The translations under genes and the position numbers were made by a program. A DNA stretch of 64,000 nt from a virus (taxonomy: Duplodnaviria > Caudoviricetes), in IMG/VR virus record IMGVR_UViG_3300026121_000008, positions 32,001 through 96,000 of that record; one strand, given 5' to 3'. The notes beneath the pieces were generated by a model that ran no database searches, was not told the DNA's origin, and saw nothing but the letters and a program-made list of their open reading frames with translations. This document shows, piece after piece, positions 2 through 61,388 of the stretch (the first letter of the stretch is position 1; each line of letters opens with the position of its first letter).

Positions 2-2569
2 AAGGCGATTGAGAAAGAGCAGGGAAAAACCATCATCCCTGCGTTGGTCAAGTTAGAGGAAAAAGGTCCGCTCCAAAAGATGTTCCTCGCAGAGGAGGCG
101 ACGTATAAAGCGGATACCACTCAGCAGTCGTTGCTGGATCGTTTGATTCAGAAGAAGGCGGAAATCGATCAGGCGGCAACACTCGAAGAATCGACGCGGG
201 GTACTGCTGCAAACGAGTCGGCCAAACGTCTCTTGGAAAGAAAAAATGCGGAATTAGAATTCATTCAAGCCCAATTTGTCAGCATCCACGGGACGAATGA
301 GGCGGCAGCGGCGGAGGTCAAACTCTTCGAGGCGCAAAGCAAAAAGTGGGCCGCACAACGAGAAGTGTCGCGCACGCTGGAAGAACCGACAACAAAAGAA
401 AACAGCATCAAAGCCACCGACGCCTTGGCCGAGGCGGTGAAAAACGAGAAAAATGCGTGGAGTGATCTGGAAGCGGCCATCCGTAGCAATGTCAAGTTAG
501 ATCCCTACCAGCGGCAACAGCAAGTCGAGACCGCCGCACGAAACCGCCAACGTCGGGAAGATCAGGAGTTCGGAGATCGGGTGCGGGAGGCGAAGAAGCA
601 ACTCGGGCTGGACAAGTTCACGTTCCCCTTGGGGGGCACGGATGATACCGAACTTGCGGCGTTTACGCAAGGAGCTAAGAATTTTGAATTGGTGCTGGAA
701 GAGCGGACGAAGTCCCTTGCGTTGAAGACCCAAGCAGGAGCCGAACAGGCGAGGCAATCCGGGAAGACCCTGAAAGAGGCGTTGAAAGTCGTGTCCGAGT
801 CCGTCACAGACGCCTCGTCTGCCGAATTTCGGGAGTTGGTCAATAAGTATATCGCGTCCACAGGAGACGTAGCCACCGCGACCACGGCTCTGGGCAGGGC
901 CGCGCAAAATGCTCGACAAGCCCGATTGGCGTTCGCCGCTCCAGTTATCGCAGAACAGCGAGAAATTACCACGGATGCCACGAATAAGCGTATTGCTCAG
1001 GCCCAACGCACGGTCAACAGTCTTAACACGCAGGGACAGGTTCAGGGCAACGCCCTCGAAAATCTTCAACGACAGAATTTGATCCGGCTGGACGATTACT
1101 ATCGTCAACGGATGGATCGCATTAGGGAACAAGGGGAAGCGGAGATTAACCTTCAAGAAGAACAGATCAACCAAGCGTTGGAGTTACAGACACTGGCGAT
1201 CAAGTCGCGTGACCCGAAGCAGATCCGAGATGCAGAAGCGGCAGTCGCGAGGGAGCGGGAACAGGCCCGTGTGATTACCGGGAAAACGGAAGCCGAACTT
1301 GATAGGGAACGGCTCGACCGTGATGAGCGGCGTCGGGTGATGAACAAGGAGATCGAAGCGGGACTGATTGCTCAGAGTGCTCAATTTGGAGGGCAGAAGG
1401 AAGCCCTGATCCAATTGAACTACCAGTTGGATGAAGAGTACGACAAATTGTGGATTCTGGGGAATCCGCTGGCGGATCAACTCATCAAGATGAAGCGGCT
1501 CTCTGGTGAAGCAGAGATTGTCCGGAAAGAACGGGAACGCGCCCATCAGATTGAACTGGGGATTCAGACGGCCATCCAAGGCCAATTGGATTTACGACAG
1601 CAGATGCGGTCGGCTGAAGGAGCCAGTGACCGTCTGTTGAATCAACGGGGACGGATAACCGATGTGGAATTGACACGCCGGAACAATGAACGGGTACGAG
1701 AGGAAATGGCCGATAATCGGCAGCGACGACTGTCACAAGAAGAGCAACTGGCGAGTAACATTGTTGATTTCAAACGACAAGAAGGCGAATTGGTAATTCT
1801 GAGAGTCCAGCAAGGCTATGATGCCGTTGAGATCAATCAGCAGTTGCTTGTGCTGGAGCAGCAACATGCAGCGGCAATTCTCCAAAGTAAATTAGAGTTG
1901 GAGGGACTCAATACGGAATACGTAAACTTGGGGACTCAGATTGAACTCCAGAGTACCCGCATCCGAAAATCTATCGAAGATGGGTTCACTGACGCGATTA
2001 CCCGGACGATTGTCGATTTCAGGAAGGCCGGGGAAATCTGGAAACAGATGGCGAATCAGATCGTCAATGAGATTGTCAGCATTTTTGTGCGGTCTTTTGT
2101 GCAACGCGGCATCATCAATATGCTGGCGGCGTTTGGTGGCAGCGGTGGAACCGTGGGAAGCCTCGGTCGGGGATTCGTACCCGGTCGTGCTGAAGGCGGG
2201 GTTATCAGTGGCCCCGGTACCGGCACCAGCGATTCGGTGCCTGCGATGCTCTCCACGGGAGAGCACGTCATGCCTGCCTCCAAAACAGCCCAGTGGCTCC
2301 CCCTGCTGGAAGGTATCCGTCTGGGGAAGATCCTTCCCTCCTACGCCTTGGGCGGGGTGGTGGCGTTGCAATCAATTTCACTGCCTTCGGTCATCCCCCG
2401 TCGCTACGCCAACGGAGGCGTCGTGGTGTCTGATGGCGGGGCCTCTGCGGTGACCCCCGGAGGCGGTGGCCCCAGCAATATGGTGGTGTCCCTTCACCCG
2501 GATGCCATGAATATGACCCTCAGAGAGTGGTTGGAACACGAAGTCGTGCGTCAACAAGGGAGACGGTAA
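2..2569 (+). CDS. Tail tape measure protein, 3' part (frame open to the window edge)
   Basis: Long Ala/Glu/Gln/Arg-rich helical protein ending in the typical TMP C-terminal motif GRAEGGVISGPGTGTSDSVPAMLSTGEHV; followed by tail genes. Confidence 0.85.
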   Translation, partial: KAIEKEQGKTIIPALVKLEEKGPLQKMFLAEEATYKADTTQQSLLDRLIQKKAEIDQAATLEESTRGTAANESAKRLLERKNAELEFIQAQFVSIHGTNEAAAAEVKLFEAQSKKWAAQREVSRTLEEPTTKENSIKATDALAEAVKNEKNAWSDLEAAIRSNVKLDPYQRQQQVETAARNRQRREDQEFGDRVREAKKQLGLDKFTFPLGGTDDTELAAFTQGAKNFELVLEERTKSLALKTQAGAEQARQSGKTLKEALKVVSESVTDASSAEFRELVNKYIASTGDVATATTALGRAAQNARQARLAFAAPVIAEQREITTDATNKRIAQAQRTVNSLNTQGQVQGNALENLQRQNLIRLDDYYRQRMDRIREQGEAEINLQEEQINQALELQTLAIKSRDPKQIRDAEAAVAREREQARVITGKTEAELDRERLDRDERRRVMNKEIEAGLIAQSAQFGGQKEALIQLNYQLDEEYDKLWILGNPLADQLIKMKRLSGEAEIVRKERERAHQIELGIQTAIQGQLDLRQQMRSAEGASDRLLNQRGRITDVELTRRNNERVREEMADNRQRRLSQEEQLASNIVDFKRQEGELVILRVQQGYDAVEINQQLLVLEQQHAAAILQSKLELEGLNTEYVNLGTQIELQSTRIRKSIEDGFTDAITRTIVDFRKAGEIWKQMANQIVNEIVSIFVRSFVQRGIINMLAAFGGSGGTVGSLGRGFVPGRAEGGVISGPGTGTSDSVPAMLSTGEHVMPASKTAQWLPLLEGIRLGKILPSYALGGVVALQSISLPSVIPRRYANGGVVVSDGGASAVTPGGGGPSNMVVSLHPDAMNMTLREWLEHEVVRQQGRR

Positions 2570-2979
2570 TGCCACTGCAGTTTAGCGATACCCTGCGGAA
2601 CAACCGCATCAATCAGGTGGAGACGACCATCGGCAGCAGTCCGACCCTCCGCATCATGTCCGGAGCCATGCCTGCCAACTGTGCGGCGGCTGATGCGGGC
2701 ACGCTGCTGTGCTCGATGGTCCTGCCTGCCGACTGGCTCTCCAATGCCGCCTCTGGTGTCAAGTCCAAACAGGGGACGTGGACGGGCACTGCTGACGTGG
2801 CGGCAGGGGCAGGCACCAATGCAGGCTATTTCCGCCTGAAATCCGGAGCCACCACCCACTGTCAAGGCAACATCACGGTGTTCGGGGGAGGTGGGGCGAT
2901 GACCATCGATGACATCACGATCATTGCTGGCCAGCCGGTGAACGTGACGACCTTCGTCCTGACGGATGGCAACCCCTAG
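2569..2979 (+). CDS. Putative phage tail/structural protein (MPLQFSDTLRNNR...)
   Basis: ATG overlaps the TMP stop (TAATG); beta-rich, resembles small phage tail proteins. Confidence 0.65.
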   Translation: MPLQFSDTLRNNRINQVETTIGSSPTLRIMSGAMPANCAAADAGTLLCSMVLPADWLSNAASGVKSKQGTWTGTADVAAGAGTNAGYFRLKSGATTHCQGNITVFGGGGAMTIDDITIIAGQPVNVTTFVLTDGNP

Positions 2980-2985
2980 CAGGCC

Positions 2986-3498: not shown

Positions 3499-3502
3499 GG
3501 CG

Positions 3503-6481: not shown

Positions 6482-9003
6482 GAGAGATATGGAGAACCGT
6501 ACCTCTGTCGTACTACAAGGAGGGACAGCGGAAGACCGGGCTGGATATCGTGTATCACCCGGAGATTACATCGCCCTATATCGAGACGTTCAATACTCCG
6601 TTGGGGCTGATGGCGACGACGATTCCGGCTCCGAATGGCTACAGCGTCTACCTCGTTTCGACCATGGACGCCAAGTATCATCCGGGCTTCGACGTGGACT
6701 GCTGGCGGATCGACAGCCAGACCGGCGTGGAGATGGCGAAGTATGCCATCAAGTTCGTGGGCGAGGCATTGTCGATCTACTACATGACGACAGCCCGTTC
6801 CGGTACACAATGGTATGCCCCCGGTGGGGGAGGGACGCTGTATAAGTTCCACTGGGCCACGAAGGTGCAAGCCCTGAAGGAGGCGGACGACAAGCCCATC
6901 ATCGAGGTGGACCATCTGTATGCGGTCGATGGGGAGATGGGGCAGGCGCACTTCGAGAACGCGCCCACGATTGGGGGACCGTTCGCCATGGACGACCAGT
7001 CTGCCGGAGGAGGGACGTATCTCCAGCCGGTGGGGCGAGGGGGCGGAGTCGCCGCACTGGGCGTCTGGACTCTGACGACGGGCAAGTGGCGGTATGACAT
7101 CGTGGTGCCCCATCAGGTGATGGACATCGCGTTGGAAGACCCCAGTCGAGCCTATCTTCTGCTGGCGAACCGCACGGTGGCGTTGCTCGACTACACGCGA
7201 GGCGAGATTTTAGGGGCCGCGAAGATTCCCCCGTTGAAGGAAGGGCAAGTCTACGGAGATGGCGGGTTGCACTTGACTGCAGGAGCCCGGATTGCCTACG
7301 ACCGGATGTACAAGCGGCTGATGCTCATTGAGCCGTGGCCCGACAATCCGAACGGCAGTTGTGCGACGGTGGTCCGGGGCTTCAGTCTGGTCAATGAGCC
7401 GAACCGGTTGACGACGCCGTTTCCGTTGAAGGTACCGAGGATGGGACGCACCGTCCCGGTGCTCGTGCAAGTGGTCGATGACCTGAACCAAGGGGTCGGA
7501 AATTTCATCGTGGAGGCGACTGTGAGTGGGGTGGGATCACTCGTAGGCACACCAATCACCGACTACCGGGGGGATGCGCTGATCTATGTGGCGTGCATCG
7601 GCTCTCCGTTGTTCCAATCGCCTCCGGACACCTCGCCCCCTCCGTCCACCGGCCCCGGAGTCGGAGGCGACTTGGGCATTCCGGTCATCGGGAAGCCCAT
7701 GTGGGTGGGATTTTTTGAATTTCCACCTCACACGGAAATAGGCGACCTCGCCTACCTCCCTCCCGCGAACTGCCTGATGTGGGTGGACGAGATTACTCGT
7801 GTCGGCCCGATCAAGAACATTGTGACGGACGCAATCATCGCCCAGTGGATTCAGGGCACGTCGGTGGGAGAGATCAACACCAAGGTGGCGGCGACTTCCG
7901 GTCCTGCGGTGGCCTATTGGGACCACCGCGATTGGCCTTCGTGGCCCACGCTGAGAACCGGGGATTGGCTGGCTCTCCAAGCCTACTGTCGCGCCGAAGA
8001 AACAGCCGCGCAGTTTGAAGTGGCCATGCAGTCGGTCATTGCAACGGCTCCTTCCGGCAATGACATTTGTCTCGTGTGCCAGTGCTACACGTCGAATACG
8101 AACAACACGAATGACTTGGCGGGATTGGTCCCGGTCTACGCTCGACTCGCCCGAGACTTTCCGGAAGTGACGATGCTGCTGGTGTTCTCCGACCAAGGGC
8201 GAGCGACCGGCATGATGGATCACCCGGACGTGAAGCCCTACTGGGAAGAGTTGTATGAAGGGGTTGAAGGTGATCCGGGGTTGATGGCGTCTACGCTATC
8301 TTTCGACACCGGCTCATCGAGCGGTGGCATCGTGGGGACGGTGACGGTCATCGCCAAGATCCGTGTGCCGTTGGTCCCGACGATTGGCGTGCCTAGCGGA
8401 CAGTCTGCCACCACCCCTCCTGCGGGCTCAGGAGGCGGTACAGGAGGCGGAGGGACGCCACCCCCCACCACACCACCTCCTCCCGGTACGCCTCCCACAA
8501 CGCCTCCTACGGGTGGAGGGACACCTCCGACGACTCCCCCAAGTCCTCCGGGGACACCTCCCCCCGGTGGGGGCAATCCTCCGGTGCCTCCCCCCAACCC
8601 GGCTCCTCCGGGAGGTGGCACTGATCCGGGCACAGGCGCACAGGAAACAGCCCCGAATATGTATTTCAAAGTGCGGGAGGTGTACGATTCCCGTCCGTGG
8701 CGGTTGACGGAGCCCTACAAGTACGAGGCAGATGGAGCCGGGGCGTTCACGGAAGCGGTCACCGTCGCCATCCATGATGTGAACGCGAAGTTCGCACACC
8801 TGAGTCGGAATCCGGGACAAGTGCTCTACAACGGGCACTCCGTGGACTCTATCGCCTACAAAGCGGCGAGTGGCAACATCGAAGTCATTCAGGTGGTGAG
8901 TACGATCATGACCGGGAATGCGACTCCCGGCACCATCATGTGGCAGTGGATCAGTAGTTCTCTTGATACGGGCCAGTCGTTTTATCCCGTCCCTTTGAGG
9001 TAG
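6475..9003 (+). CDS. Multidomain tail protein B2 (propeller-like, Ig-like, alpha/beta domain, Pro/Gly/Thr linker, C-terminal domain)
   Basis: 842-aa ORF; N-terminal ~345 aa paralogous to B1; low-complexity PPPGT linker at ~8400-8640. Confidence 0.7.
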   Translation: MLREIWRTVPLSYYKEGQRKTGLDIVYHPEITSPYIETFNTPLGLMATTIPAPNGYSVYLVSTMDAKYHPGFDVDCWRIDSQTGVEMAKYAIKFVGEALSIYYMTTARSGTQWYAPGGGGTLYKFHWATKVQALKEADDKPIIEVDHLYAVDGEMGQAHFENAPTIGGPFAMDDQSAGGGTYLQPVGRGGGVAALGVWTLTTGKWRYDIVVPHQVMDIALEDPSRAYLLLANRTVALLDYTRGEILGAAKIPPLKEGQVYGDGGLHLTAGARIAYDRMYKRLMLIEPWPDNPNGSCATVVRGFSLVNEPNRLTTPFPLKVPRMGRTVPVLVQVVDDLNQGVGNFIVEATVSGVGSLVGTPITDYRGDALIYVACIGSPLFQSPPDTSPPPSTGPGVGGDLGIPVIGKPMWVGFFEFPPHTEIGDLAYLPPANCLMWVDEITRVGPIKNIVTDAIIAQWIQGTSVGEINTKVAATSGPAVAYWDHRDWPSWPTLRTGDWLALQAYCRAEETAAQFEVAMQSVIATAPSGNDICLVCQCYTSNTNNTNDLAGLVPVYARLARDFPEVTMLLVFSDQGRATGMMDHPDVKPYWEELYEGVEGDPGLMASTLSFDTGSSSGGIVGTVTVIAKIRVPLVPTIGVPSGQSATTPPAGSGGGTGGGGTPPPTTPPPPGTPPTTPPTGGGTPPTTPPSPPGTPPPGGGNPPVPPPNPAPPGGGTDPGTGAQETAPNMYFKVREVYDSRPWRLTEPYKYEADGAGAFTEAVTVAIHDVNAKFAHLSRNPGQVLYNGHSVDSIAYKAASGNIEVIQVVSTIMTGNATPGTIMWQWISSSLDTGQSFYPVPLR

Positions 9004-10439: not shown

Positions 10440-13231
10440 TGGACTTCCGCTGGCGACCGATCACACGGGACAGTAAACGGGAGTTGAAGGTCATTCTGCA
10501 CCCGACTGCCGCGATCTGGGAAGTGCGGCGGGGGATGGAAGCGGGGTCCGATGACTCGGTAGACCTGACGGAGTTTGTCAAGGAGGTGACCCAGACCGCC
10601 TATGACCTGAAGCTCTCGCTGGTGTTCAATCGGGAACTGTTTGGCCCGACGCAACCCAAGCCGAACCAGACCATCGAAGTCCAGTTGAAGCAGGATGATC
10701 AGTGGAAGATCCTGTGGCTGGGTCACGTCGATAGCATCTCGAACTTCGCCATGTCCCGAGGCGAACGGCAGATGGACGTGCTGGCCAAGACTCGTGACCA
10801 GCAGGATATCTGGCGGGCCACGCCTCGTGTGACTCCGTTGTTCCCGGCCCTGACTGATCTGGTCTACATGGCCCAGTTGGTGGCCCGCTCTGCGGAGATG
10901 AAGAGCGACGAGATCGTGCTCCCGCATTCGGCCATTGCGACGGCCCACAGCAATACCCAGTTGGTGGATATGACCAACTGGGAGATGGTCAGTAACATCT
11001 TCGTGGCTCTGGGCTGGACCCCCTACATCGATGCGCTGGGGCGTCTGAGAGCCGCAGATCGGAGACTGCAAGGCCGGGAACCCGATACCAAACTGGATGA
11101 TGACCGCATCATCAAGGTGGGCGGCACCCGCATGAGGCCCCCGGTAAACCGGGTCCGGGTGAAGTGGCTCAGTCCGGAACTGCAAGTCTTCGAGCAGCAG
11201 CGGCGGGTCATCAAGTCCTTCAACGTGACTTTTGGGTTCTGGTTGCCCTACTGGCATCAAACGGTGAAGTTTTCGGATGACGGGTCACTCCGTGCGTTGA
11301 AGACGGAATGCAAGCCCAACCCGGATGGGGGCGGCGTCTTCCGGTGGGTGCAATTCGGCTATGAGAAATGGGTGCATCAATCGCCCACGCAGGGCAAGTT
11401 TTCGATTTTCAACTTCGGCTTTTTTGCAATGGCAGGGCTGCTGTTTGATTGGAATCGAGCGACGGCTGAACAAGACGAAATTCCAATACTGACCGTAAAT
11501 CAAGCTTTTATTCCTCATCTGGACGTTGTTGTTGCAGGGGCATTTGCAAGCGAAGGATATACCTTACCGGGAGATACAGACACTACGACCACCCAGCCCA
11601 GTATGACAAGATCTACGCCGTTAAATGGTCGAAAACACCAAGCCCTCGTGCAGGCGGGTATTACGGCCATGCTCGTCAACGCAGGTACTGGCACCTATGA
11701 TGTCTGGGGCACGCCCTACGACTGGATTCATGCCCGGAATACGTCCGAAGCCTTTGATATTTCCGTCCCAACGTGGGTGAACAACGTCTCTGACCTCGAA
11801 TGCGATTTCATCGGGAACGAAGAGCATGCCGGAGCTATTGCCGTCCGAGAACTGATTTATCTGGCCCGCTCTGCCAACAAGTGGTCCGTAACTATCGTGG
11901 ACGATCCCCGCATTGAGATAGGGGACATTCTGGCGTTCACCGATGGCAGTCAGTTGTATGTGGAGGATTATTCCCGGACGCTGTCCCGAGGCAGTGAAGC
12001 CGTGCTGGACGTGAAGGGATTTTTGGTCCCCACCCACTCGGCTCCACGGGCAGAAACGCCTATCGGAGGCGGAGGGGGAGGCAAGCCGGGGACCGGTCCC
12101 GGTGCGGGAGGCCCCACTCTGCCGCCCATTACGACCGCCGAGATGATCGGAGACTTCGCCCTGACGGATGTCACAGGCGAGAACGTCATCCCACCGGGTG
12201 ACTCGATTCGTCAAGGATACCTCTATTGCGCCCAGCCTCCCGAAGAGCGGAAAAAGTGGGTGGCGGATTGGGTGAAGCTGGGCATCAAGCACATGTGGAT
12301 TGCCCCTACGGTGAACTACGGGGGCGGGCTGCAACGCAACAATAATGCTTTCCTCCGGGACCGGGATGGGAATCTGTACGATGCCCGTGGCCGGTCTGGA
12401 CGGTGGGCGGTGAGACACGGGATTGCTCCCCGATCCAAGCCTTACGAAACGGCAATTGATTGCCGCCAAGACCCGCCGAGGTTCATCGAGTGTGTCAACG
12501 AACTGAAAGCCGCAGGCATCACCCCTTACGTCCAGATTGCCGCATCAGACGCTTATGGGACCAAAGACAATATCGATCTGGACAAGATTGCGCGTGATCT
12601 CGACAGTTGGAAAGGCTGGGGCTGGGTGGACGCTGTTGATGGCTACGGCACGGACCTGTGGCCGGAGTCGGATGCCGACACCTACCCGTGGCAAATGGTG
12701 GATATCTGCAGAATGGCGAAGGAAACCCTGCCCAACAGCATTCTGATGGCCCATGTGGGCCGGTCAGGAGATGGGTTGTATCAAGGCTACGGGGAAAACC
12801 CCGGCTCTCCTGATTACTGGGGCCGCGAGCGGTTTTGGACGGAGATGCACGCCGCAGGCTGTACCGCCTTGGGGTGGGAAGCGAAGACCGAGATCTTTGA
12901 AGACCCCGACTGGCAGCACATTCTTGTCCGCGAATATCTCGGAGCCTACACCCGGTTGACGGAACCGTTGAGTGACGAAGAGGCGACGGAACGGGCGGCA
13001 TCAGTGGGCGTGACGCTCACGCAGGAGGATTTGAATAACCTATACCATGGAGGCCCTGCCGGAGGAGCCAGTACGGCCCTCCCCTATTGGGAAGGTCCAG
13101 AATACGGATTGCAATGGGCCAGTTGGCAGAAGGCCGATGCCGCCCGTCTCCTGATCGGGTGTGGCGCACCGGGGTCCATGTCCGGAGCCGTGTCCATCCC
13201 ATCAGAAGCTCTGAAGAGGAGGCTCGTGTAA
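10439..13231 (+). CDS. Baseplate hub/tail-tip-like protein with C-terminal putative glycoside-hydrolase-like (TIM-barrel) domain
   Basis: Hub-like motifs YIDALGRL and DPRIEIGDILAF...YVEDYSRT; Gly/Pro linker, then an alpha/beta domain similar to 43901-44959. Confidence 0.6.
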   Translation: MDFRWRPITRDSKRELKVILHPTAAIWEVRRGMEAGSDDSVDLTEFVKEVTQTAYDLKLSLVFNRELFGPTQPKPNQTIEVQLKQDDQWKILWLGHVDSISNFAMSRGERQMDVLAKTRDQQDIWRATPRVTPLFPALTDLVYMAQLVARSAEMKSDEIVLPHSAIATAHSNTQLVDMTNWEMVSNIFVALGWTPYIDALGRLRAADRRLQGREPDTKLDDDRIIKVGGTRMRPPVNRVRVKWLSPELQVFEQQRRVIKSFNVTFGFWLPYWHQTVKFSDDGSLRALKTECKPNPDGGGVFRWVQFGYEKWVHQSPTQGKFSIFNFGFFAMAGLLFDWNRATAEQDEIPILTVNQAFIPHLDVVVAGAFASEGYTLPGDTDTTTTQPSMTRSTPLNGRKHQALVQAGITAMLVNAGTGTYDVWGTPYDWIHARNTSEAFDISVPTWVNNVSDLECDFIGNEEHAGAIAVRELIYLARSANKWSVTIVDDPRIEIGDILAFTDGSQLYVEDYSRTLSRGSEAVLDVKGFLVPTHSAPRAETPIGGGGGGKPGTGPGAGGPTLPPITTAEMIGDFALTDVTGENVIPPGDSIRQGYLYCAQPPEERKKWVADWVKLGIKHMWIAPTVNYGGGLQRNNNAFLRDRDGNLYDARGRSGRWAVRHGIAPRSKPYETAIDCRQDPPRFIECVNELKAAGITPYVQIAASDAYGTKDNIDLDKIARDLDSWKGWGWVDAVDGYGTDLWPESDADTYPWQMVDICRMAKETLPNSILMAHVGRSGDGLYQGYGENPGSPDYWGRERFWTEMHAAGCTALGWEAKTEIFEDPDWQHILVREYLGAYTRLTEPLSDEEATERAASVGVTLTQEDLNNLYHGGPAGGASTALPYWEGPEYGLQWASWQKADAARLLIGCGAPGSMSGAVSIPSEALKRRLV

Positions 13232-17518: not shown

Positions 17519-17546
17519 TTGCACTTGGTTGCAAAGGAGTTGCCTC

Positions 17547-40242: not shown

Positions 40243-40279
40243 GAGCGTCGAAAGCTCAGACGCACAGAAGGAGTCTGAC

Positions 40280-40522
40280 ATGCGAAAGAAGAAGACCACC
40301 CCGCTGCTCGTGCCCCAGCCCGTCAAGATCGATAGCCGGATCTGTTTCGGGATTGCCTACTTCACGTCCAAGAAAGACGCCGAGACATACGACCGCTACG
40401 TGCGGGAGCAGGGACTCACCTACAATGGCGGCTACTTCCATGGGATGTCGTGTGGACGAGACGCGACGTGGGATCACGTTGATCAATCCTCTGGTAAGCA
40501 GTTGTATGCGGTGACGATGTAA
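40280..40522 (+). CDS. Small hypothetical protein
   Basis: AAGGAG RBS after the promoter. Confidence 0.7.
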   Translation: MRKKKTTPLLVPQPVKIDSRICFGIAYFTSKKDAETYDRYVREQGLTYNGGYFHGMSCGRDATWDHVDQSSGKQLYAVTM

Positions 40523-40926: not shown

Positions 40927-42834
40927 ATGCCGCGCTATGACCGTCTGGGCAATATCGCGTTCGGAGTAGATCGCTACGTAGGGGTGCAACGACGGGGTGA
41001 GGCGGCGCGGGTCATCGCGGAGCCTGCGAACCAACCCGGTTGGCTCTTCGACAACGTCCTCCTCTGGCAGCAGGATGCGTTCAACGACCCACCCCTGCCC
41101 GAGCCTTACTTCAAGGCCGAGGATGGACGGACGTGGCCGGGACGGGCCAATGAGTTATGCGCCGGAGGCAACCGGTGGGTGAGTCTCCTCATCCCAGCGG
41201 AAGGCCCCCGGCTCACCACCAGTGAGGGCCGGGTCATCCCGCATGCGGGCAAGCACGCCGTGGGGGTGGACGGCACCCTGATCTACAGTCCGTATCGCCA
41301 ACTGGCCAACGGGGTCCGGATTGAACTGTCCAATGGGAGCGTCATCCTCGATGACCCGAACTCCCCCATCGTCAGCAGTACGTGCATCGACCGTCATGCT
41401 GCTGCATGGTGGAACAACACGACCACACTGGGAGTCTACGAGGATGGCAACGTCCGCTACTGCCAACTGGCCTACCCGGCGTATGGTGGCAAGCTCTTCC
41501 GACTCGACGGGGACTTGCATGTGGTCTACTCTGGCCCCCAGAATCTCGTTATCCATGCTGTCGATGATGCGACGAGAGGCTGGCTGGTCGGTCCAGTCGA
41601 GCATACCTACAACCCTGACGCGATTGAGCTTCCCAACGGCCAGTTTTTCGTCTGCTTCTCGCTGACCGCCGGGGAGCGAGTCGAGGACATTCGTGAAGCC
41701 CAGATCACGATGGAGCCTCAGCCCTTCCCGAAGCCCGAGGAGCCCCCTCCTGCGACCGTGCCGGAGTTCGTGGTGGCCCATCGTCCCCTGCCTGTGGGTG
41801 CGTGGTTCGAGGGCAACCAGTACAACCTCGCAGAGGCGGGAGCGGGCGCGGAGCGGCACCCCGTGGACCGGATGACCCGAGGGGTGTTCGTGGATATTTC
41901 CGCAGAGAACCCCCCCACAGCCAACGCCCGGAGCTTAGCCCGGAGTATCGGCTGGCCTTGTTACGAGTACGTGGATGGTCGCCCTCATGATCGGGAGGTC
42001 GCCGCTGATTCGTATGCGATGGTGTGCGCGTATGCGAACAGCCACGAGTCCGCTGAACAGAACCTGCACTCAATTGCAGAGGACGTGTCCAGAAACCAAA
42101 GCCGTCCATGGGCGATGGCCCTCTCCCTCCATCGAGGTATCACCGGAGAGGGCTATGACCGCCCGGAGCAGTTAGTCCTCGACGTGGCCGCAGGCGCATG
42201 GAAGCTGGCGGTCGATCATGGGGCCAAGGCCGTCTGGATCTTCGCCTTCGACCGAGGGAATGGCCGGGACGGCTGCACCCGTTTCCCGACGTTCATGACC
42301 GCCCTCCATAAGATGCGGTATGCCAGTGACAACTGGGAGGCGTTTCCGCCCTACTCCATTCCTGTCCCTCCCAAACCCCCCACCGGCCTGTATCCGACAG
42401 TGCCACTCTACAAAGGACACGGTATGACTGAAGTCGATGGATTTCTGATTGGAGCCGCCGCGAAGACGGGTCGTGTGGACCCGAATGACCGGGACCAGAA
42501 TGGTCGTCCGAAGGTGCATTGGGATCGGCAACTCCGTCCCGGTGATCGAGCCGGTGGGCAGGAACTGGTCCGCGCCAAGAAGCAGAGCAACGGCAAGTGG
42601 ATCTTGGTGTACGTGGAAGCAAACGTCGCCATGAACGGGGCTCCGGACTGGCAGTGTGCCGACGCCAGCAGCCGCCAGTTCGAGACCCGCCCCCTCGACC
42701 AAGTTGGTGGAGACGAGCAGTGGATGCTCGTGGTCATGCCCGATGGGCGCATCCAAGGCCAGACCATCTTCGACTGGGAGAACGGGATCAAGTTCTCGGG
42801 CGTCCCGGTGACCTTTGTCGAGAATCCCAAGTGA
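40927..42834 (+). CDS. Multidomain protein: beta-repeat domain, alpha/beta putative hydrolase domain, beta-trefoil-like C-terminus
   Basis: Promoter TTGCAC-N17-TAGAGT at 40889; segments resemble 9006 (N-terminus) and 6475 (middle). Confidence 0.6.
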   Translation: MPRYDRLGNIAFGVDRYVGVQRRGEAARVIAEPANQPGWLFDNVLLWQQDAFNDPPLPEPYFKAEDGRTWPGRANELCAGGNRWVSLLIPAEGPRLTTSEGRVIPHAGKHAVGVDGTLIYSPYRQLANGVRIELSNGSVILDDPNSPIVSSTCIDRHAAAWWNNTTTLGVYEDGNVRYCQLAYPAYGGKLFRLDGDLHVVYSGPQNLVIHAVDDATRGWLVGPVEHTYNPDAIELPNGQFFVCFSLTAGERVEDIREAQITMEPQPFPKPEEPPPATVPEFVVAHRPLPVGAWFEGNQYNLAEAGAGAERHPVDRMTRGVFVDISAENPPTANARSLARSIGWPCYEYVDGRPHDREVAADSYAMVCAYANSHESAEQNLHSIAEDVSRNQSRPWAMALSLHRGITGEGYDRPEQLVLDVAAGAWKLAVDHGAKAVWIFAFDRGNGRDGCTRFPTFMTALHKMRYASDNWEAFPPYSIPVPPKPPTGLYPTVPLYKGHGMTEVDGFLIGAAAKTGRVDPNDRDQNGRPKVHWDRQLRPGDRAGGQELVRAKKQSNGKWILVYVEANVAMNGAPDWQCADASSRQFETRPLDQVGGDEQWMLVVMPDGRIQGQTIFDWENGIKFSGVPVTFVENPK

Positions 42835-45951: not shown

Positions 45952-46829
45952 TGGCCCTCATCACTTGCCGGTCGGGCAAGGTGTCTCACCCCAGCCGGGA
46001 GGCGGCACTGGCCCACCAGAAGGCCCTCATCTTCAAGAACAATCTGGAAGGCGTCCCAGAGCGGTCCAAGGGCCTGAACGTCTACCCGTGCCCGGAGTGC
46101 GCGGACTGGCACGTCGGTCACAAGCCGGATGAAACGCCGCTGGTGTACCACTACACCACGGGATACCACCTCGATCTGATTCTGAAGGCCAAGAAGTTGC
46201 GCCCTCGAAATGCGAAGAAAGAGAGTCGAGCTATCAACGAACCCAAGCCCCTCCTGTGGTTTTCTTGGAACGCCATATGGGAACTTTCTGTGCTGAAAGA
46301 TCCTCGCCCGTCATGGGCGCGTTCGGTGGTGCCGACTGGACGGGCGATTACCGAACTGTGTAACGGAGGCTTGGTGCGGTTCAGTGCCCCCGCATTTGTG
46401 GCGAAGCTCCGCTGGTATGACTATCTCGTGCGAAACAAGACGCCGAAGCTCCAGCAGGAGATGATGACGCAGATCGGGAATCCCATCGAGTGGCTGGCGA
46501 CGGATCGTCCGGTCCCCCTGTCAGAGTGCCGTGCCGTGGAGGTGTGGTATCACGGGCAGTGGGTGGATCGACTGTCGGTGTCCGATGAAGAGTTTGAGGC
46601 GTATCTCGCAGGGCGGAACAAGGCGTATAAGGCGGCATGGGAGCGTCTCTCCGCTCGTGAGCCGATAGCCCTGTCTCCAGATGCGAATGACGCCGAAGTG
46701 ATTCTGTTCGAGGACTACCTGCAGGAGGTGCGGGAGCACAACTGGATACAGACGCATCGTGCGGAGATTGACCGGTTCAAGGCCACGCTGAAGCGGACGC
46801 CCCAAGGCGTGCGGACCATCACGCGGTAG
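45951..46829 (+). CDS. Zn ribbon plus putative ADP-ribosyltransferase-fold domain
   Basis: YPCPECADWHVGH, then YHYTT...L..IL....LRP...LLWFS....WE. Confidence 0.45.
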   Translation: MALITCRSGKVSHPSREAALAHQKALIFKNNLEGVPERSKGLNVYPCPECADWHVGHKPDETPLVYHYTTGYHLDLILKAKKLRPRNAKKESRAINEPKPLLWFSWNAIWELSVLKDPRPSWARSVVPTGRAITELCNGGLVRFSAPAFVAKLRWYDYLVRNKTPKLQQEMMTQIGNPIEWLATDRPVPLSECRAVEVWYHGQWVDRLSVSDEEFEAYLAGRNKAYKAAWERLSAREPIALSPDANDAEVILFEDYLQEVREHNWIQTHRAEIDRFKATLKRTPQGVRTITR

Positions 46830-46901
46830 GCACTCAAGTGCAGTGTTGACAAACGCTGGTGTGTGTGCGAGAATGGTTGCAGGTCACAGGAGGACCGACA
46901 G

Positions 46902-48368: not shown

Positions 48369-48877
48369 ATGATGAGACGACGACTGGTACGACGACTACG
48401 GGTGGCGGAGTTCCACTTCAGGGCGTACACTGGCCCGGAGATGGTGTCCTCGACGGCAGAGCGGCTGTATGCCATGGCTCCACCCGGATTCAAGGTGACG
48501 ACCGTGGGCACACAGCACGTCCACTTCGCGGTGCTGTCCCTGACGCCGTATGGTGCGGAGTTGGCGACCCGGTCGTGGTGGCTCTCGGCAGGCTTGCGGT
48601 TGAAGCCGTCCGATCTGGAGCCCCTCGGGGAGCATGGCATTCAAGTGCAATCCGAAGCGGTGGTGTCATGACAACGTGTGCGGTGTGCCAAGGCACGGAG
48701 GCGTTGTCAGACATGACCGATGGACAGACCCACCACACCCTCTGTCAGGAGTGCCGGGAACTGGTGACGACGTTGTTCTACATCCACGGGACCATGAGCG
48801 TGGCCGTCATGGAGAGCACACGGGCGAAGCGGGGACGCAGGGAGACGGGCGATGCGGATTGGGTTTTCTGGAACTAG
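48369..48877 (+). other. Two small ORFs (48369-48671; 48668-48877 Zn-finger)
   Basis: RBS; ATGA coupling; CAVC...CQEC. Confidence 0.55.
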
Positions 48878-51992: not shown

Positions 51993-52387
51993 CCAAAAAG
52001 AAAGCGACCCTCGAAGCTGTGCAGGACGTGCAACCAGTTGCCACGGTGGGCTTGAAGAAGATCGTCTCCTTTGGCTACAAGTATGCGCCTCCCCCCAAAG
52101 ATGCCGGGGGGATCGTGGTGGACGTGCGGCAGATGTTCCGGAACCCGTATGCCAATCGGAGCCTGCGTCATAAGACTGGTTTTGACCAGTCTGTGCAGGA
52201 CGAGATCAAAAAGACTCCGGCTTTCCGGACGAAGGTCCGGGCTCTCAAGGCCCTGATGAAAAGCCCCGGCATTTCGGCGGGCTACATCGGGTGCGTCGGT
52301 GGCAAGCATCGGAGCGTGTTTCTGGCGGAGTTACTCGGCAGTGAGTTAGGCGTCCCGGTCGAACACCGTGACGTGCATCGGCCATAG
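51989..52387 (+). CDS. Stand-alone RapZ/YvcJ C-terminal domain protein
   Basis: IVSFGYKY; VDVR...RNPY; IGCVGGKHRSVFLAE.L; HRD. Confidence 0.85.
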   Translation: MTKKKATLEAVQDVQPVATVGLKKIVSFGYKYAPPPKDAGGIVVDVRQMFRNPYANRSLRHKTGFDQSVQDEIKKTPAFRTKVRALKALMKSPGISAGYIGCVGGKHRSVFLAELLGSELGVPVEHRDVHRP

Positions 52388-54294: not shown

Positions 54295-54322
54295 CTGCAA
54301 CCAAGTGCAGGAAAAATAGGGG

Positions 54323-54382: not shown

Positions 54383-57259
54383 ATGGACGCCTATACGAAC
54401 TTTGCTGTAGCAACGGTCGTAACAGCCCCCACTCCTCCGGGGTCCGGGGATCTCCTCGTGGTGAAGGCGGGCCAAGGCACACGGTTCCCTGCCGTGCCCT
54501 TTAATGCGTCCGTCTGGCCGAAGAATCTCCTCCCCGAACCCACCAACGCCGAGATCATCCGTGTCCTCGCCATTGACGGCGACACGCTGACGGTGGAGCG
54601 AGGGGCAGAAGCGACCTCGACGCGGAACATCCTCGCAGGCGACTGGGTGGCGGCGACCATCACGAAGAAGATGCTCGATGACCTGAGACAGTCAGGCATC
54701 GTTGGTCCTCCCGGTCCTGAAGGTCCAGTGGGTCCGGAAGGCCCCGAAGGTCCACCGGGAGCCGGTCTCGCTATCGAAGGCTCGGTGCCCACGTCCGATG
54801 ATCTCCCGCCCACGGGTGACCCCGGTGAAGGGTGGATCACCGAAGACACCGGACATCTGTGGGTCTGGGATTCGACGTCGGAGACGTGGATTGACACCGG
54901 ACAGATTCAAGGCCCTGTGGGACCGCAAGGTCCGCAAGGAGATCAAGGGCCGACTGGAGCCCAAGGGGATTCGGGTGTGCCCGGTCCCCAAGGTGATCCC
55001 GGCCCGGATGGCCCGCAAGGGATCGAGGGACCAGCGGGAAGCCAAGGTCCACAAGGTCCGGAAGGCACGATAGGTCCGGAAGGTCCGATTGGGCCGACTG
55101 GCCCTCCGGGGACGAGCATCGATCTGCAGGGCACGGTGCCCACTGCCGATGATCTCCCCTCTACCGCTCAGCCGGGAGACGCATGGATCACCGCCGATAC
55201 CGGACATCTCTGGGTCTGGGATGCGGACACCTCTGCATGGTTCGACGCGGGCGCGTTTCCCCAAGGTCCGCAGGGACCAGAAGGCCCGCAAGGCCCGGTC
55301 GGTCCCCAAGGCGAGATTGGCCCCGCAGGCTCCGAAGGTCCACAGGGGATTCAGGGCATCCAAGGCTCCACTGGCGTCCAAGGCATACAGGGCATCCCCG
55401 GCAACACCGGGGCGACTGGCCCAGCCGGGGCGACCGGGTCCACCGGCCCCGCAGGCCCCAAGGGTGATACGGGGCTCACAGGGGCCACAGGAGCGACCGG
55501 ACCCGCTGGAGCCACCGGACCCCCCGGAGAGACCGGGATCGCCGGTCCTGAAGGCCCCCAAGGGGTGCCCGGAGCCGATGGGGAGGACGGGGCGACTGGA
55601 CCTCCCGGAGCCACTGGCCCCGCAGGCCCTACGGGGGCACAGGGGCCTCAAGGCGTGGCGGGAGCGACCGGAGGCACTGGACCCGCCGGGGCGACCGGAT
55701 CGACCGGCCCAGAGGGGCCTATGGGTCCACAGGGGCCACAGGGCGTCCAAGGGCTGAAAGGCAATACCGGCGACCAAGGCCCTGCCGGGGTACAGGGGGA
55801 GATGGGGTTCCCCGGACCCGAAGGTCCGACTGGTCCGAAGGGCGATACCGGGAACACCGGAGCTACGGGATCGACCGGCCCTCAAGGCATCCAAGGTCCG
55901 ACTGGTCCCCAAGGTGTGCCCGGACCCGAAGGCCCCGATGGTCCCGAAGGCCCACCCGGAACCGGCATTGCCATCAAAGGCAGCGTTCCCACATACACGA
56001 GCCTGCCCTCCACGGGCAACGCCGAAGGCGATGCGTGGATCACGTCTGACACGGGTCACCTCTGGGTGTGGGATGGCGATTCATGGGTGGACGCAGGCAA
56101 TCTGCAAGGCCCACCCGGACCCGCAGGCCCCGAAGGTCCAGAGGGAGATCAGGGCATCCCCGGCTCGACCGGTCCTCAAGGCCCTGCTGGTGCGACGGGA
56201 TCGACGGGACCAGCCGGTCCCCAAGGTGATCCCGGACCTACCGGAGCCACGGGCTCGACAGGAGCTACCGGATCGACCGGTCCCAAGGGGGACACGGGCA
56301 ACACCGGCCCGCAAGGCATTCAAGGCATTCAGGGCACGACTGGCGCGACGGGATCGCAAGGCCCCAAAGGTGACACGGGTGATACCGGAGCGACCGGTCC
56401 CCAAGGCATCCAAGGTATTCAAGGGCCAGCCGGTCCCGAAGGTCCAGAGGGTCCACAAGGCCCACCGGGAGAAGACGGCTCAGGCACAGGCGGCAGTACC
56501 GATCTCGATTACGTGGGCGATTACACCTCCGGCACCTACAACGATGGGGACATCGTCATCGGGGCGGACGGCATCGCCTACATGTGCGTGAAGTCGGGGG
56601 TCACCACCCCCCCTGAACCATGGCCGGGGATCGGCGCAACGACCGCAGTCGGGCCTCCCGGACCCACCGGCCCGACTGGGCCAACAGGACCGGCTGGAGC
56701 CGCCGGAGCCGCAGGGGTGACTGGGCCAACCGGTGCGCCCGGAACTCCCGGTGAAGCGTGGTTCTCTGGTTCCGGTGTTCCGTCAGGATCGCTCTCCGGC
56801 AGCGTGGTCGGAGACTGGTACCTGAACACGTCGAACGGTGACGTCTACGAGAAGACTGGGAGTTCCGCGTGGACCCAGCGCATGAACTTGACCGGTCCTG
56901 CGGGAAGCACGGGAGCCGCTGGCATCACTCGTCCCTTCCGCCTCGGCCATACGTGGGCGTTGTATGGTGACGTGACCGCGATTACCACGATGCCCTCGAT
57001 GTTCGTCCCGTTCAACGGCACGCAGGCCGCGACGTTGATTGGATTGCGCCACAAGATTGGTTCCGGAACCAGTGTGGGTGTGCAGTTGAGGCGGAACGGG
57101 AGCAATCTCGGCAGCGTGATTACGGTCACCGGAACGGCGACCACGACGGCCTTCAGTCAGGCACTGGCCGCAGACGATGAATTGACGCTGGTCTTGTCGT
57201 CGCCAGCGGTGACCCCGTCGAATCTCACGGTCACGCTGTACATCGAGCACACGCCATGA
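54383..57259 (+). CDS. Collagen-like fibre protein
   Basis: Extensive Gly-X-Y runs interrupted by three G.VPT...LP.....[13 protein letters not shown] modules. Confidence 0.88.
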
Positions 57260-57900
57260 CGATTCAAGGCACAGGTGGCGCGGCGGCAACCAGTGTGGCG
57301 ATCCCGACGCACGCCGCAGGCGATTTGATCTGGGTCATCACGCGAGCGGCGAGTAACACGGCTCCAACCAAACCCACGGCGAGTGGGACCGTGCCGAACT
57401 GGACGGTGGCATACACCGGGGGCGCGAACACGCTCGCGTTTGTGTCTGCGTGGTTCGTGGCAACGGCGTCCACCACGACGACCGGAGCGTGGACCGGTGC
57501 CTCCCATATTGCTGTGATTGTGTTGCGTCCGATCCCCGGAATGCTCTTGGGAGTGAATGCGGCCCCAACCGGCACAGCCAATGGGTCGAACTCCCAGACG
57601 ATTGACTACCCGTCTTGTGCGCCCGTCACCACCATTAACGGTTCGTCGTCTGGATTGCGGATGGCGACACGCGGCACGGCGGCGACCTCGATGAACACGC
57701 CTCCCACTGGGTGGACGAATCAGTTGGTGCAACCGTCAGGAGCGGGCGCGTTGATCGCGGTGCATACGTTTGCGCCCTTGACGCAAAACATCGGTCTTCT
57801 CACGGTGAGTTTGACCGGCACGACGAATGCGCCGTGGCGTGCTCATTCGTTTGAGATCACAGAAAAACCGCCACAGCAGCGGATGATGGTCATCACATGA
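57256..57900 (+). CDS. Thr/Ala-rich putative virion protein
   Basis: ATGA coupling at both ends; [10 protein letters not shown] motif. Confidence 0.6.
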
Positions 57901-60900
57901 GCAGTCCCGATCCCGCTACCACGGAGTGGGTACCCATCTGGAATCCGATGGGAGCCGGAGAGACTGGTCCCGCTGGTCCGACTGGTCCCGCTGGTCCCGA
58001 AGGCCCGCCCGGACCCGGCATCGAACTGACCGGGACGGTCTCGACTCGTGCGGCATTGCCAACAACTGGTACGGCTGGTGATGCGTACCTCGTTGCGGAC
58101 ACCGGCCATGTCTGGGCGTGGGATTCCACGGCGAGTCACCCGGACTATGCGACTGTCCGTGCGTCCGACTCGTTCAATCGATCCAATGGGGCGTTGACTG
58201 GTTCCTCACTGGACCATGCGGCAGGAGGATTCGGATCGCTGCACTGGGCGAACGTGGCGACCACTTGGACGGTGACCAGTAACCGCGCCACGGCTGGAGG
58301 GACGGATGGCATCACCGTCGTGACGGATGCGCCCGATGAGATGCAGACGGCCATCGAAGCCACGATTGGTCTTCACAACGATGGGATCGGCCTCATCACC
58401 CGGTGGGCGGCGAACGGCGCAACAGGCAATGGCTATGTGTTTCGTGCGCTCGGTCACGGCGGTGGGCTGAGCATCGAGAAGAAGACGGACCTTGCCTACG
58501 TCACGCTGGCAACCAATGCGTTCCCCACGGGCGCGGGCTACACGTTGCGGTTCGAGGTCGATGGGCCGTACCTGAAGGGCTACGTCAACGGAGCCTTGTT
58601 CGTCGCCGCAGAGGACGACACCTATCTGCTCGGCAAGCCGGGTCTGTTGGGGATCTCCTCGTCCGACGCCATCGACAACTTCAAGTATTACCAAGCGGGC
58701 ACGAGTTCAGGCGGCTGGGTGGATGCCGGTCCCATCGTCGGCCCAGAAGGCCCGACCGGACCCGAAGGCCCCTCCGGAGGGGGACTGACCATCCAAGGTA
58801 TCGTTTCGACCGAAGAAGAGTTGCCAGAAACTGGCGATCCCGGAGATGTGTGGATCGTTGAAGACACCGGCCATCTCTGGGGATGGAAGGAAGCTGTCGG
58901 AGCGTGGACGGTCGTCGCCTCGGACTCGTTCATCCGCTCGAATGGTGCTCTGACCGGCTCCACTCTCGATAACACCTACGGCGGCAGTGGCTCACACCAG
59001 TGGCTGGATCTGAATCAGTCGTGGGCGATCAACACCAACCGATGCGAACCCGGAGGCGGGGGCATCGGGATGTCCTACCCGTACAACCTGTCTCCGTCTG
59101 CGAATCAGGCCGTCGAGTCCAAAGTAACGACCTCCAGCACAAACAGTCCCGGCATCATGGTGCGGCTCTCCCCGAATGGGGCGGATAGCAACGGCTACCT
59201 GTTCTACGTGGTGGGGTTGACCTCGTGTGAACTCTACAGAAAGACGGCGATGACGTTCACCAGTCTCGGGACTGGTCCAGCGGTGGCTACCGGATCGGTG
59301 CTGCGCTTGGAAGCGGAAGGCTCGACGCTCCGGGCGTACGTCAACGGCACGCTGGTGATCACCGGCACGGACAGTACCTACGCCACGGGTGGGATGGGGT
59401 TGTACGGCGGTGGCAACAGCATTTTTCACACCGAGACGAAGTTCTACGAAGCAGGCGGGGGCGGGGGGGAGTCTGGCTGGGTCGATCTTGGGCCGGTCGG
59501 CCTTGTCGTGCATCATGCGACTCACGAACCGGGTGGCACCGACGTCATCGAACTGACCGACGAGAACCTGCTGTTCGGTCGGGGTGACGGAGCCGGTGGC
59601 GGCGACATGCAGGAGATCAGCCTCGGCCCGTATCTGACCATGACCGGCACCGTGATTGACGTCGCGGGCGCAGGCATGACGCCGTTCATCGTGCAAGATC
59701 TCGGAGGAGCCAGACGGGCGTTGCAGAAAGCGGGGCGTGCCCCGGAGGGCTACCTGCCCAACGCACAGGAGCTATCGGCCCTGCCCTCCGGCTACGTCAC
59801 GGTGGAGACGGGGACGGGGGTGCTGGGGTCCATGTCCACCATCCCGTCGTCTGGACTCGCCTCGAATGTGGCCTTGACCGATGTCCAGAACGTGTTCAGA
59901 GAGGATCAGTCGATTGCGCGTGGCAGCATGGACGTGGGGCGGTTGTCCTTTGGGACGGCGGGCGCGGGCTATCTCGACTGGGATGGCCGCAATCTGCGGG
60001 TGGAAGCCTACGCCATCATCCCCGCGACCTCGGTCCCGCTCGGCCAACCTGATCAGGAGTTCGGAGAGATCTGGACGAGTGATGGCATCCGGGCGGGGCA
60101 ACATCCGGCCACGTCTGGGGCACTGGGATTTGCGAATGATCAGGGCATCTTCGCCCGGAACGAGGCTGATACCGAAGACATCGAACTGCTGAACCTCGGG
60201 TCAGATGATGTGGTCCGCGTGGCAGGCATCGATATCGTGGCCGCACTGGCGGAACCCGGTCCAGTGGGTCCGCAAGGCCCACAAGGCCCACAGGGCGTGA
60301 AAGGTGATACCGGAGCCACAGGGAGTCAAGGCCCACAGGGCGTCAAGGGAGATACCGGGGCACAGGGCACACAAGGTCCGCAGGGTATCCAAGGCCCACA
60401 GGGCGTGCCGCCAGCGAACTGCGCCATCACGAACCAGACGAACAATTTCACAGTGGCGCAGACGTTCTCGTCACAGGTCAACATGCCTTCCGGCATCCTT
60501 GAACTGTCCAGTGCTGCTCCAGAGGTCCGGTTCAAAGAAACGACCGCCCCGGTGGACCAGCGCATGTTTCGCTGGGTGGCCAATTCACAGGCGTTGATTC
60601 TGCAAGCCACGAATGATGCCGGAACGGTGGCGTCAACGACTCCGGTGTATTTCAGTCGAGCAGGCAGTGCCTACATCCAGCAGAACGTCTACGAGCGGGG
60701 CCGTCCGAACCCGATGGGCCGCTGGTATGACGTGCCATTTGCCGCTGGTAACTTCGCGGCCAATGGGGCGACGTGGACGGTTGCCGCCCAAGCCATCCTC
60801 CGGCATCGCGTCATGCTGATTGACAACACGATGTGGTGGAGTATCTATGTCTCGTGGTTCTCTGGAGGCAACACCCTGACCGGATCGGCCACACAGTTGT

Positions 60901-61094
60901 ATATCGGGATGCCGTGGAACATGGCCCCGTACCAGTTGAATCACATTGACTACGCCATTGACGGGGCGTCAGGCCGGGTCGCGCTCGATGTGAACCCCAG
61001 CGGGTCCACCATGGTGATCACACGCAAGGATGGCGCGAACTTCAACGGCACACCGGGGTTCATCGTCTCAGGACAGGCGTGGGAGATCCAGTAA
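57897..61094 (+). CDS. Fibre protein with short collagen runs and two lectin-like beta-sandwich domains
   Basis: Duplicated [15 protein letters not shown]...LR.E..G..L..YVNG domain; Gly-X-Y segments; fibre-like C-terminus. Confidence 0.8.
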
Positions 61095-61388
61095 GTGATC
61101 GTTGGCGGCGTCTATCCCGGTGCGTATTGGCTAGAGACGGCACCCGTCCCGGTCATCCCCGGATTCGCCCCCTGCCTCATCAGCACCATCAAGGTCCGGA
61201 CATTGGTGGTAGCCTGTGCGGCACTTGATTGCACGACGCTTGTCGAAGCCACTATGGTACAGGTACAACAGATGGCCACAGGGATCGAGATCAACGGGCA
61301 TACCATCACCGCGACGGCCATGGTGAAGATCCGCTACCTGATTACCAGTGAAGGTATGAAGACGTGCTGTGTGGAGCGAGTCCTATGA
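61095..61388 (+). CDS. Hypothetical protein
   Basis: Fills the gap between coupled genes. Confidence 0.45.
   Translation: MIVGGVYPGAYWLETAPVPVIPGFAPCLISTIKVRTLVVACAALDCTTLVEATMVQVQQMATGIEINGHTITATAMVKIRYLITSEGMKTCCVERVL

Follow-up and report, generated by a model that had tools for sequence, protein, structure and literature searches.

The window examined here, 64,000 nucleotides long, comprises bases 32001-96000 of the 111,942-bp IMG/VR virus record IMGVR_UViG_3300026121_000008 (59% G+C), which derives from a phage of the class Caudoviricetes that we label G000. Gene calls place 128 of the record's 129 genes on the plus strand. Dispersed among these genes is a short near-palindrome, a 14-mer with TGCA arms and a 6-bp centre whose middle is a pyrimidine-purine step; its exact form is the pattern KGCAMYYRRKTGCM. 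We describe the distribution of this site in G000 and its relatives, the selection that acts on it, and the phage proteins that are candidates for reading it. The set of sites is referred to as the lattice, and positions are window coordinates unless marked as genome coordinates.

The pattern has 12 matches in the window against a mean of 0.06 in dinucleotide-preserving shuffles, none of 100 shuffles reaching 12. Over the whole record there are 23 exact copies, and a reversed-pattern control gives 0. When all GCA-N6-TGC 14-mers of the genome are sorted by mismatches to the pattern, the counts are bimodal (23 with none, 8 with 1, 3 with 2, then background); the real site set of G000 is therefore about 31-34, that is, 23 exact and approximately 11 near copies. 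An unbiased scan of relatives over all palindromic arms and gaps returned the 14-mer dyad as the single outlier.

The 12 exact copies, to which no strand is assigned, were all found where the original prediction had placed them. Several lie within genes: 12451-12464 in a 930-aa tail-region gene, 42065-42078 deep in a 635-aa gene (relatives have no conserved site there), 52029-52042 in a 135-aa gene, 49 nt from its start, and 61220-61233 in a 97-aa gene. The copy at 31839-31852 lies in a RuvC-like gene, and that at 21220-21233 close to the 3' terminus of a 320-aa core gene; each of the 4 compared relatives has a site no more than 60 nt from the aligned position. Others occupy gene ends and gaps. 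The copy at 17520-17533 fills a gap between a stop codon and a ribosome-binding site (RBS), with the next ATG 14 nt on, and G001 and G002 have a site in the same gap; the copy at 34001-34014 follows the 3' end of the gene for p266, a protein discussed below, with the next ATG 27 nt on; and the copy at 54296-54309 is intergenic, 74 nt ahead of the start of a collagen-like fibre gene. At 25885-25898 the site lies at the 3' end of the primase gene, 5 nt short of its stop and 1 nt ahead of a TTGACA -35 (25900-25905), whose promoter drives the operon of the helicase, MerR-like, and RecA genes. At 46829-46842 it overlaps a stop codon, 3 nt upstream of a -35 at 46846-46851, and at 36638-36651 it stands immediately 3' of a -10 hexamer, an operator-like position. 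The proposal that about half of the copies are regulatory in position is thus borne out: the copies at 17520, 34001, 36638, 46829, and 54296 lie between genes or reach a gene end, those at 25885 and 46829 abut a -35, and that at 36638 follows a -10.

The five near copies noted originally are likewise present as printed. These are 2367-2380 (one arm base different, in the tape-measure gene), 7268-7281, 37722-37735 (intergenic, ahead of the large terminase gene), and 48636-48649, the last three with one mismatch each, and 40188-40201, with two mismatches. A further one-mismatch copy, absent from that list, lies at 10497-10510. The copy at 40188 is flanked by divergent promoters and adjoins the sole minus-strand gene of the genome (39740-40111, 123 aa, no family), which has homologues only in the two closest relatives. 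Within 40150-40280, a plus-strand promoter faces this gene across the degenerate motif copy, a switch-like layout.

Selection on the lattice can be separated from selection on the proteins in which many sites lie. The original prediction proposed codon-preserving shuffles as a check; after within-gene synonymous-codon shuffles, the in-gene copies of three genomes, 14 in G000 and 22 and 28 in the others, fall to 0.36, 0.97, and 1.21, an excess of about 20-40 fold. This excess, together with 12 copies in the window against 0.06, excludes a chance origin. A second check, conservation of in-gene copies in relatives, also came out in favor of the sites. The same aligned codons carry the site in the RuvC-like gene (5 of 5 genomes), the ThyX gene (5 of 5), and the gene for a PPDK-like kinase (4 of 5), proteins that share only 37-69% identity across the compared genomes; at the C-terminus of the 320-aa core gene a site is nearby in 5 of 5. 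Where the center dinucleotide flips or an arm base differs, the protein acquires a different residue while the motif stays intact (as in LQLIA to LQSIA); a flip of this kind accounts for the one altered residue at the RuvC-like position. Judged from these alignments, the lattice is selected strongly enough to override protein sequence at conserved positions. Further in-gene sites are lineage-specific, so turnover occurs as well.

The sites are also spaced more evenly than chance, in line with the regularity test suggested at the outset. In G000 the coefficient of variation (CV) of the spacing is 0.62, compared with 0.94 when sites are placed at random (P = 0.011), and it drops to 0.46 when one-mismatch copies are added. 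Circular spacing in all 5 genomes compared gives a CV of 0.43-0.62 against about 0.95 at random, with P from <0.0002 to 0.011. There is one site every 2-5 kb, and the smallest gap between two exact sites is 676 bp. The site has no clear strand bias: the center dinucleotide on the coding strand is CA or TG in ratios of 11:11 in G000 and 14:14, 17:10, 26:16, and 21:10 in relatives. Furthermore, the two arms vary independently of each other, with symmetric pairs in 8, 10, and 14 of 23 sites at the three variable arm positions. Independent variation argues against a hairpin and points to a dimer that reads two half-sites on duplex DNA.

These features make it scarcely credible that the repeat functions by folding into a hairpin in RNA or a single strand (in termination, processing, or priming), or that it is a by-product of restriction-modification or of chance. 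The sequence is self-complementary, and some copies come directly after a terminator or before an RBS. Yet its stem would be just 5 bp, the arms lack compensatory covariation, and 351 pooled sites show no conserved flank signal. Restriction-modification targets are avoided in phage genomes rather than enriched and positionally conserved, and chance is excluded by both the dinucleotide and the synonymous-codon shuffles.

The lattice extends well beyond G000. A megablast of 20 kb of G000 against a phage collection and a single-protein scan of viral contigs gave no match; relatives of about 100-120 kb were reached through RecA-like homologues. The exact pattern occurs 31, 31, 28, and 42 times in four complete relatives and 52, 43, 27, and 25 times in four more, and a ninth uncultured relative has 26 copies of a 12-bp core with different outer bases. 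Among cultured phages, Stenotrophomonas phage DLP5 has 32 copies of the 14-mer and Stenotrophomonas phage Summit 33 copies of the core. TGCA-N6-TGCA is found 28 times in Rhodobacter phage RcZahn (1.9 expected), 15 times in Rhizobium phage RHph_Y1_11 (1.3 expected), and 9 times in Vibrio phage SIO-2 (0.3 expected); these three distant relatives keep variants of the motif and the same replication-recombination synteny. A 98.8-kb contig of Burkholderia ubonensis (GCA_001528345.1, LPCD01000108.1) has 9 motif copies in 20 kb. It is a full-length member of the lineage that forms a separate contig in an isolate assembly and is also seen in an independent run, and its separateness is consistent with an episomal prophage. 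Every relative that served the motif survey carries the 14-mer or a variant; G010, a distant relative that is 96% complete, is without the motif. The family consensus is TGCAAT-YR-ATTGCA. Spelling varies around it: the arms are relaxed in G000, and G014 has only an ACT-type arm. Such changes are small and clade-specific, and they follow the phage lineages.

This distribution bears on who reads the site. The original prediction had allowed for a host factor, and a host global regulator or nucleoid protein would find some encouragement in the 5+4+5 architecture of the site, which we take to recall sites of the CRP/FNR family. However, phages of Stenotrophomonas, Vibrio, Rhodobacter, Rhizobium, and Burkholderia all retain the same arms, a shared 14-bp specificity over three proteobacterial classes is improbable, and the spelling changes follow the phage lineages. 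A phage protein is far likelier, given that carriers of the motif infect Alpha-, Beta-, and Gammaproteobacteria; we consider binding by a host protein very improbable.

The placement of sites relative to genes and promoters is nonrandom. In G000, 9 of 23 sites touch intergenic DNA, though this makes up only 7.6% of the genome, and sites are enriched near gene boundaries. Certain contexts recur, several of them shared from genome to genome. In one, a stop codon is followed by a site, an RBS, and a start codon 11-16 nt past the site. In others, the site precedes a strong TTGACA-type -35 by 1-13 nt (in G004 usually by 8 nt; also at the p266 promoter of G005 and RcZahn), comes just 3' of the -10 in a conserved promoter close to the protease gene, immediately follows the major-capsid terminator, or lies about 60 nt upstream of the portal gene. 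In this last context (genome 109594; homologous in G001 and G002), a -35-like hexamer is made up of the base before the site and the site's left arm, and a -10-like hexamer stands 17-18 nt away; this site therefore lies inside a promoter and not beside it.

The next upstream site is closer to promoters than chance predicts, with median distances of 28, 215, 878, and 1151 nt against 1098, 1483, 1606, and 1853 nt from random points. Strong promoters with an adjacent site are nevertheless a minority (1 of 6, 2 of 18, 4 of 14, and 6 of 10 in four genomes). Distances from promoters to downstream sites are not below those from random points overall, being closer in G000 only and farther in three genomes; we therefore rejected a roadblock just downstream of promoters. 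We also rejected the site as a promoter element, since the 351 pooled sites have no conserved flank and no fixed-phase -10. In the same pool, the preceding base is rarely A (8%) and the following base rarely T (8%), as if a longer palindrome were avoided.

Only two proteins that are common to all compared genomes or to the core came into consideration as sequence-specific duplex binders: p266 and a MerR/AlpA-like protein. The leading candidate is p266, a 266-aa protein encoded on the plus strand at 33047-33847 under its own strong promoter, in the last gene of the universally conserved replication-recombination module. It is universal in the motif-bearing genomes checked: tblastn finds it in 10 of 10 relatives compared, and it is also present in G003, G006, G009, G013, and G014, in the Burkholderia element, and in another contig. 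G010 has neither p266 nor the motif. The DLP5 orthologue is YP_009619961.1, and the family has at least 967 uncharacterized homologues at E <= 1e-5. The promoter of the p266 gene itself has a site 7-8 nt ahead of its -35 in G004, G005, G008, DLP5, and RcZahn; the Burkholderia element has one about 95 nt ahead of the gene.

Structure prediction gives p266 a helical helix-turn-helix (HTH) domain, with a predicted local distance difference test score (pLDDT) of about 90 over residues 30-160 of the AlphaFold2 model. In VIA-align, this domain matches the ParB-parS domain 6s6h_B with Z 7.7 (root-mean-square deviation 3.6, 111 aligned), Spo0J 1vz0_A with Z 7.0, and the KorB-operator domain 1r71_A with Z 6.4 (107/114 aligned); Z values of this size are not conclusive for helical domains and may reflect just a common arrangement. 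Foldseek matches of the model have E of 0.6 or more, and the ESM Atlas yields only sub-threshold leads (ParB-HTH/DUF1016 0.83, DUF3102 0.82). A homodimer prediction scores 0.72 against 0.00 for the best control. Of proteins solved as pairs of one chain, 20 of 30 reach this mark, and of those solved as single chains, 1 of 23 does; contacts agree between runs at 82% or more, and the partner pLDDT is at least 74. The model thus supports pairing of p266 as a homodimer. The original prediction had named the protein at 33047 as a candidate of ribbon-helix-helix type; it emerges as the best candidate, while its model shows a ParB/KorB-like HTH instead.

The second candidate, encoded on the plus strand at 28197-28664 between the helicase and RecA genes, is the 155-aa MerR/AlpA-like winged-HTH protein. 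Were it the reader, it would be a global transcription regulator and p266 would have another role. It is the sole Pfam-recognizable HTH protein of the conserved core (MerR_1, E 4.7e-06) and is a 'transcriptional regulator' in PHROG; a profile detects it in SIO-2 and the DLP5-like group, with its synteny conserved in both; invariant residues occur in its recognition helix; and a site abuts the -35 of its operon in G000, G001, and G002. Its gene has no promoter of its own, however, and no homologue at E <= 1 came out of a profile search of RcZahn and RHph_Y1_11, both strongly lattice-enriched. The HTH assignment made originally for the protein at 28191 stands, but its absence from two phages that keep the lattice makes it an unlikely reader. 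Spelling does not help to choose between the two candidates, as their recognition helices are both changed in G014, with its ACT-type arm only, and neither is changed in the relaxed G000.

Other candidates were set aside. The open reading frame near 52636, also put forward as a binder, lacks both a Pfam match and a homologue in any relative, and was rejected. The universal 121-aa and 180-aa core proteins are not HTH-like by eye and belong to no informative family. A ParB CTPase was rejected as well, none being found in G000, though DLP5, the Burkholderia element, and another contig have ParB_N genes: PF02195, the ParB N-domain that binds cytidine triphosphate (CTP), has no match at E <= 0.1 in the whole G000 genome (positive controls worked), and the G000 homologue of the DLP5 'ParB-like' gp002 gives only Mu-F-like and PFIN matches, both below the Pfam cut-off. 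The Burkholderia element has two ParB_N genes and an H-NS-like gene.

From what was directly observed (the sites, the selection on them as DNA, how they are spaced, and their co-occurrence with p266), we infer the binding of a reader and its function. The view we favor, to which we give an even chance, is that the 14-mers form a genome-wide lattice of putative double-stranded DNA sites for a phage-encoded, two-fold-symmetric protein, likeliest p266, and that this lattice works in the manner of KorB operators. The two subunits of the reader would sit in neighboring major grooves, each contacting one TGCA-type arm, and the pyrimidine-purine step at the center would provide flexibility. The reader, p266, would consist of a ParB/KorB-type DNA-binding domain and a dimerization part, without the CTP-binding N-domain, and the bound lattice may act as the KorB operator set of plasmid RK2 does. 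Strong early sigma-70 promoters with a copy just upstream, among them the promoter of the reader itself in six relatives, would be tuned or shut through that copy. The evenly spaced distal copies would hold one bound dimer per few kilobases, and may so insulate or silence the one-directional genome or organize an episome. The core of the original prediction, a dimeric protein along the whole genome, fits the independent half-sites, the lack of strand orientation, the conservation at the DNA level, and the even spacing, with the binder still putative.

Several points weigh against this view. The fold match of p266 is middling for a helical domain, and the Rubisco factor Raf1 (Z 8.2) exceeds ParB (Z 7.7). 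No sequence or Pfam signal ties p266 to ParB: p266 itself has no Pfam match, and its profile has only chance-level matches among PDB sequences and Pfam. The half-sites of G000 are relaxed, yet the recognition helix of its p266 is identical to that of G001. Phylogeny confounds the co-occurrence of p266 and motif, since the replication-recombination module in its entirety accompanies them. As to function, sliding in the style of KorB should not be assumed, since G000 lacks the ParB CTPase domain; only a minority of strong promoters have a site and most sites are far from promoters, so control of transcription initiation cannot be the main role; and the lattice is kept in plaque-forming isolates for which lysogeny is not shown here, which makes a role in lysogeny only doubtful.

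Alternatively, the lattice may serve DNA metabolism instead of transcription, by self-marking, by halting or modulating the phage RecA, Cas4-like exonuclease, or helicase, or by organizing replication, packaging, or episome segregation. We hold this explanation tentatively, and regard a role in DNA metabolism or episome maintenance as nearly as likely as the KorB-like one. It accommodates the even spacing with a minimum gap, the distance of most sites from promoters, the conserved sites deep in essential genes, and the position of the candidate reader gene at the end of the universal replication-recombination module. In addition, DLP5 persists as a phagemid (PMC5834331), and the full-length Burkholderia relative is a separate 98.8-kb contig in its isolate assembly. 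On the other hand, known recombination hot spots are asymmetric and strand-oriented and the lattice sites are neither; no partition ATPase was seen, although no dedicated search was made and the sole ATPase examined is an AAA+ protein; and a role in DNA metabolism alone does not predict enrichment in intergenic DNA and upstream of promoters. More speculatively, a ParB/KorB-like dimer without CTPase and an even, position-conserved lattice could together make up an unrecognized system of genome marking or organization, ancestral in the replication-recombination core of phages of Alpha-, Beta-, and Gammaproteobacteria.

The record has further features of note. Beyond the window and beside the DNA polymerase, a cluster at genome 97154-106179 is conserved across most of the lineage; it encodes a PPDK_N/PEP-utilizer phosphotransferase (655 aa), a small thymidylate-synthase-like protein, ThyX, and two unknown proteins, and may be a pathway of nucleotide or DNA-base modification. 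At the start of the record (L035:75-11393) lie giant genes (1109, 449, 1665, and 564 aa) with GNAT acetyltransferase, APH-like (below the Pfam cut-off), and PI3/PI4-kinase-like domains. In the window, the gene at 34041-34793 encodes a phage protein with a terminal PEP-CTERM sorting motif (PF07589, E 1.8e-08), which hints at an exosortase in the host. Two very large collagen-like tail-fibre genes (54383-57259 and 57897-61094) have no BLASTP homologue in the four relatives compared, and are therefore probably a swapped host-range module. The 'linear' record, which has the same 12 bases at genome 1-12 and 111931-111942, is therefore probably a circularly closed assembly or bears the mark of a terminal repeat.

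The lattice is common to phages of at least five host genera. Papers on DLP5 and DLP3 make no mention of it, that on DLP3 mentioning neither palindromes nor promoters; literature searches with motif strings returned unrelated papers only, and a word search on SIO-2 returned nothing relevant. Some carriers are considered for therapy against Stenotrophomonas or Vibrio, where a genome-wide system of regulation or episome maintenance is of practical interest.

The lattice was compared with known systems. Chi-like hot spots differ from it, as the lattice site is symmetric and without strand bias, and so do REP-like and terminator hairpins, as no compensatory changes keep its arms complementary. Operator and centromere sites are scattered over the genomes of episomal phages, as in the approximately 17 C1 operators of P1 and the approximately 4 sopC repeats of N15. 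These are far fewer, the P1 operators are asymmetric, and neither even spacing nor conservation within genes is described for them.

The KorB operators (OB) of the IncP-1 plasmid RK2 are also a short palindrome dispersed over a replicon of about 60-100 kb, and are found upstream of the promoters they control, at 4-10 bp or as far off as >1 kb (PMC11790492). Both sets have promoter-proximal and distal copies, the phage sites lying 1-13 nt upstream of a -35, and the 14-mer falls within the 13-16 bp of such palindromes; the predicted domain of p266 superposes on the DNA-binding domains of KorB and ParB (Z 6.4-7.7), a similarity that is not significant by sequence and, at such Z, not conclusive. 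Unlike OB, the phage sites number about 30-50, many of them in genes and evenly spaced. Furthermore, no ParB N-terminal CTPase domain was found in G000, and no KorA or IncC partner was identified in the phage, for which no dedicated search was made.

Mycobacteriophages offer two further parallels. The Cluster A stoperators (L5 gp71; PMC4351075) also comprise tens of short sites genome-wide, often in tiny intergenic gaps. They are asymmetric, oriented with transcription, and act in lysogeny, whereas the phage sites here are symmetric, unoriented, and not downstream of promoters, which leaves the stoperator analogy of the original prediction weak; a stoperator mechanism proper does not match the data. 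In Cluster O, Cresawn et al. (2015) described 17-bp dyad repeats in >30 copies, about one third in coding regions and most away from promoters; these authors predicted a dimeric binder, noted a central asymmetry without orientation, and proposed no reader (PMC4351075). The lattice resembles this array in its >30 dyad-symmetric copies across the genome, many of them coding and mostly off promoters (23 exact and 11 near in G000, 25-52 in relatives). The two differ in sequence, in length and architecture (7-3-7 there), in host phylum, and in phage lineage, and the Cluster O sites are denser at one genome end. Dispersed dyad arrays as such had thus been observed; new here are the lattice of this lineage, the depth of its conservation, and a candidate reader. 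With carriers in culture (DLP5, DLP3, Summit, SIO-2-type vibriophages, and RcZahn) and two candidate readers, the purpose of dispersed phage dyad repeats, the question posed by Cluster O, becomes testable. By these likenesses, an array of the KorB/Noc or Cluster O type would be a closer analogue of the lattice than the stoperators.

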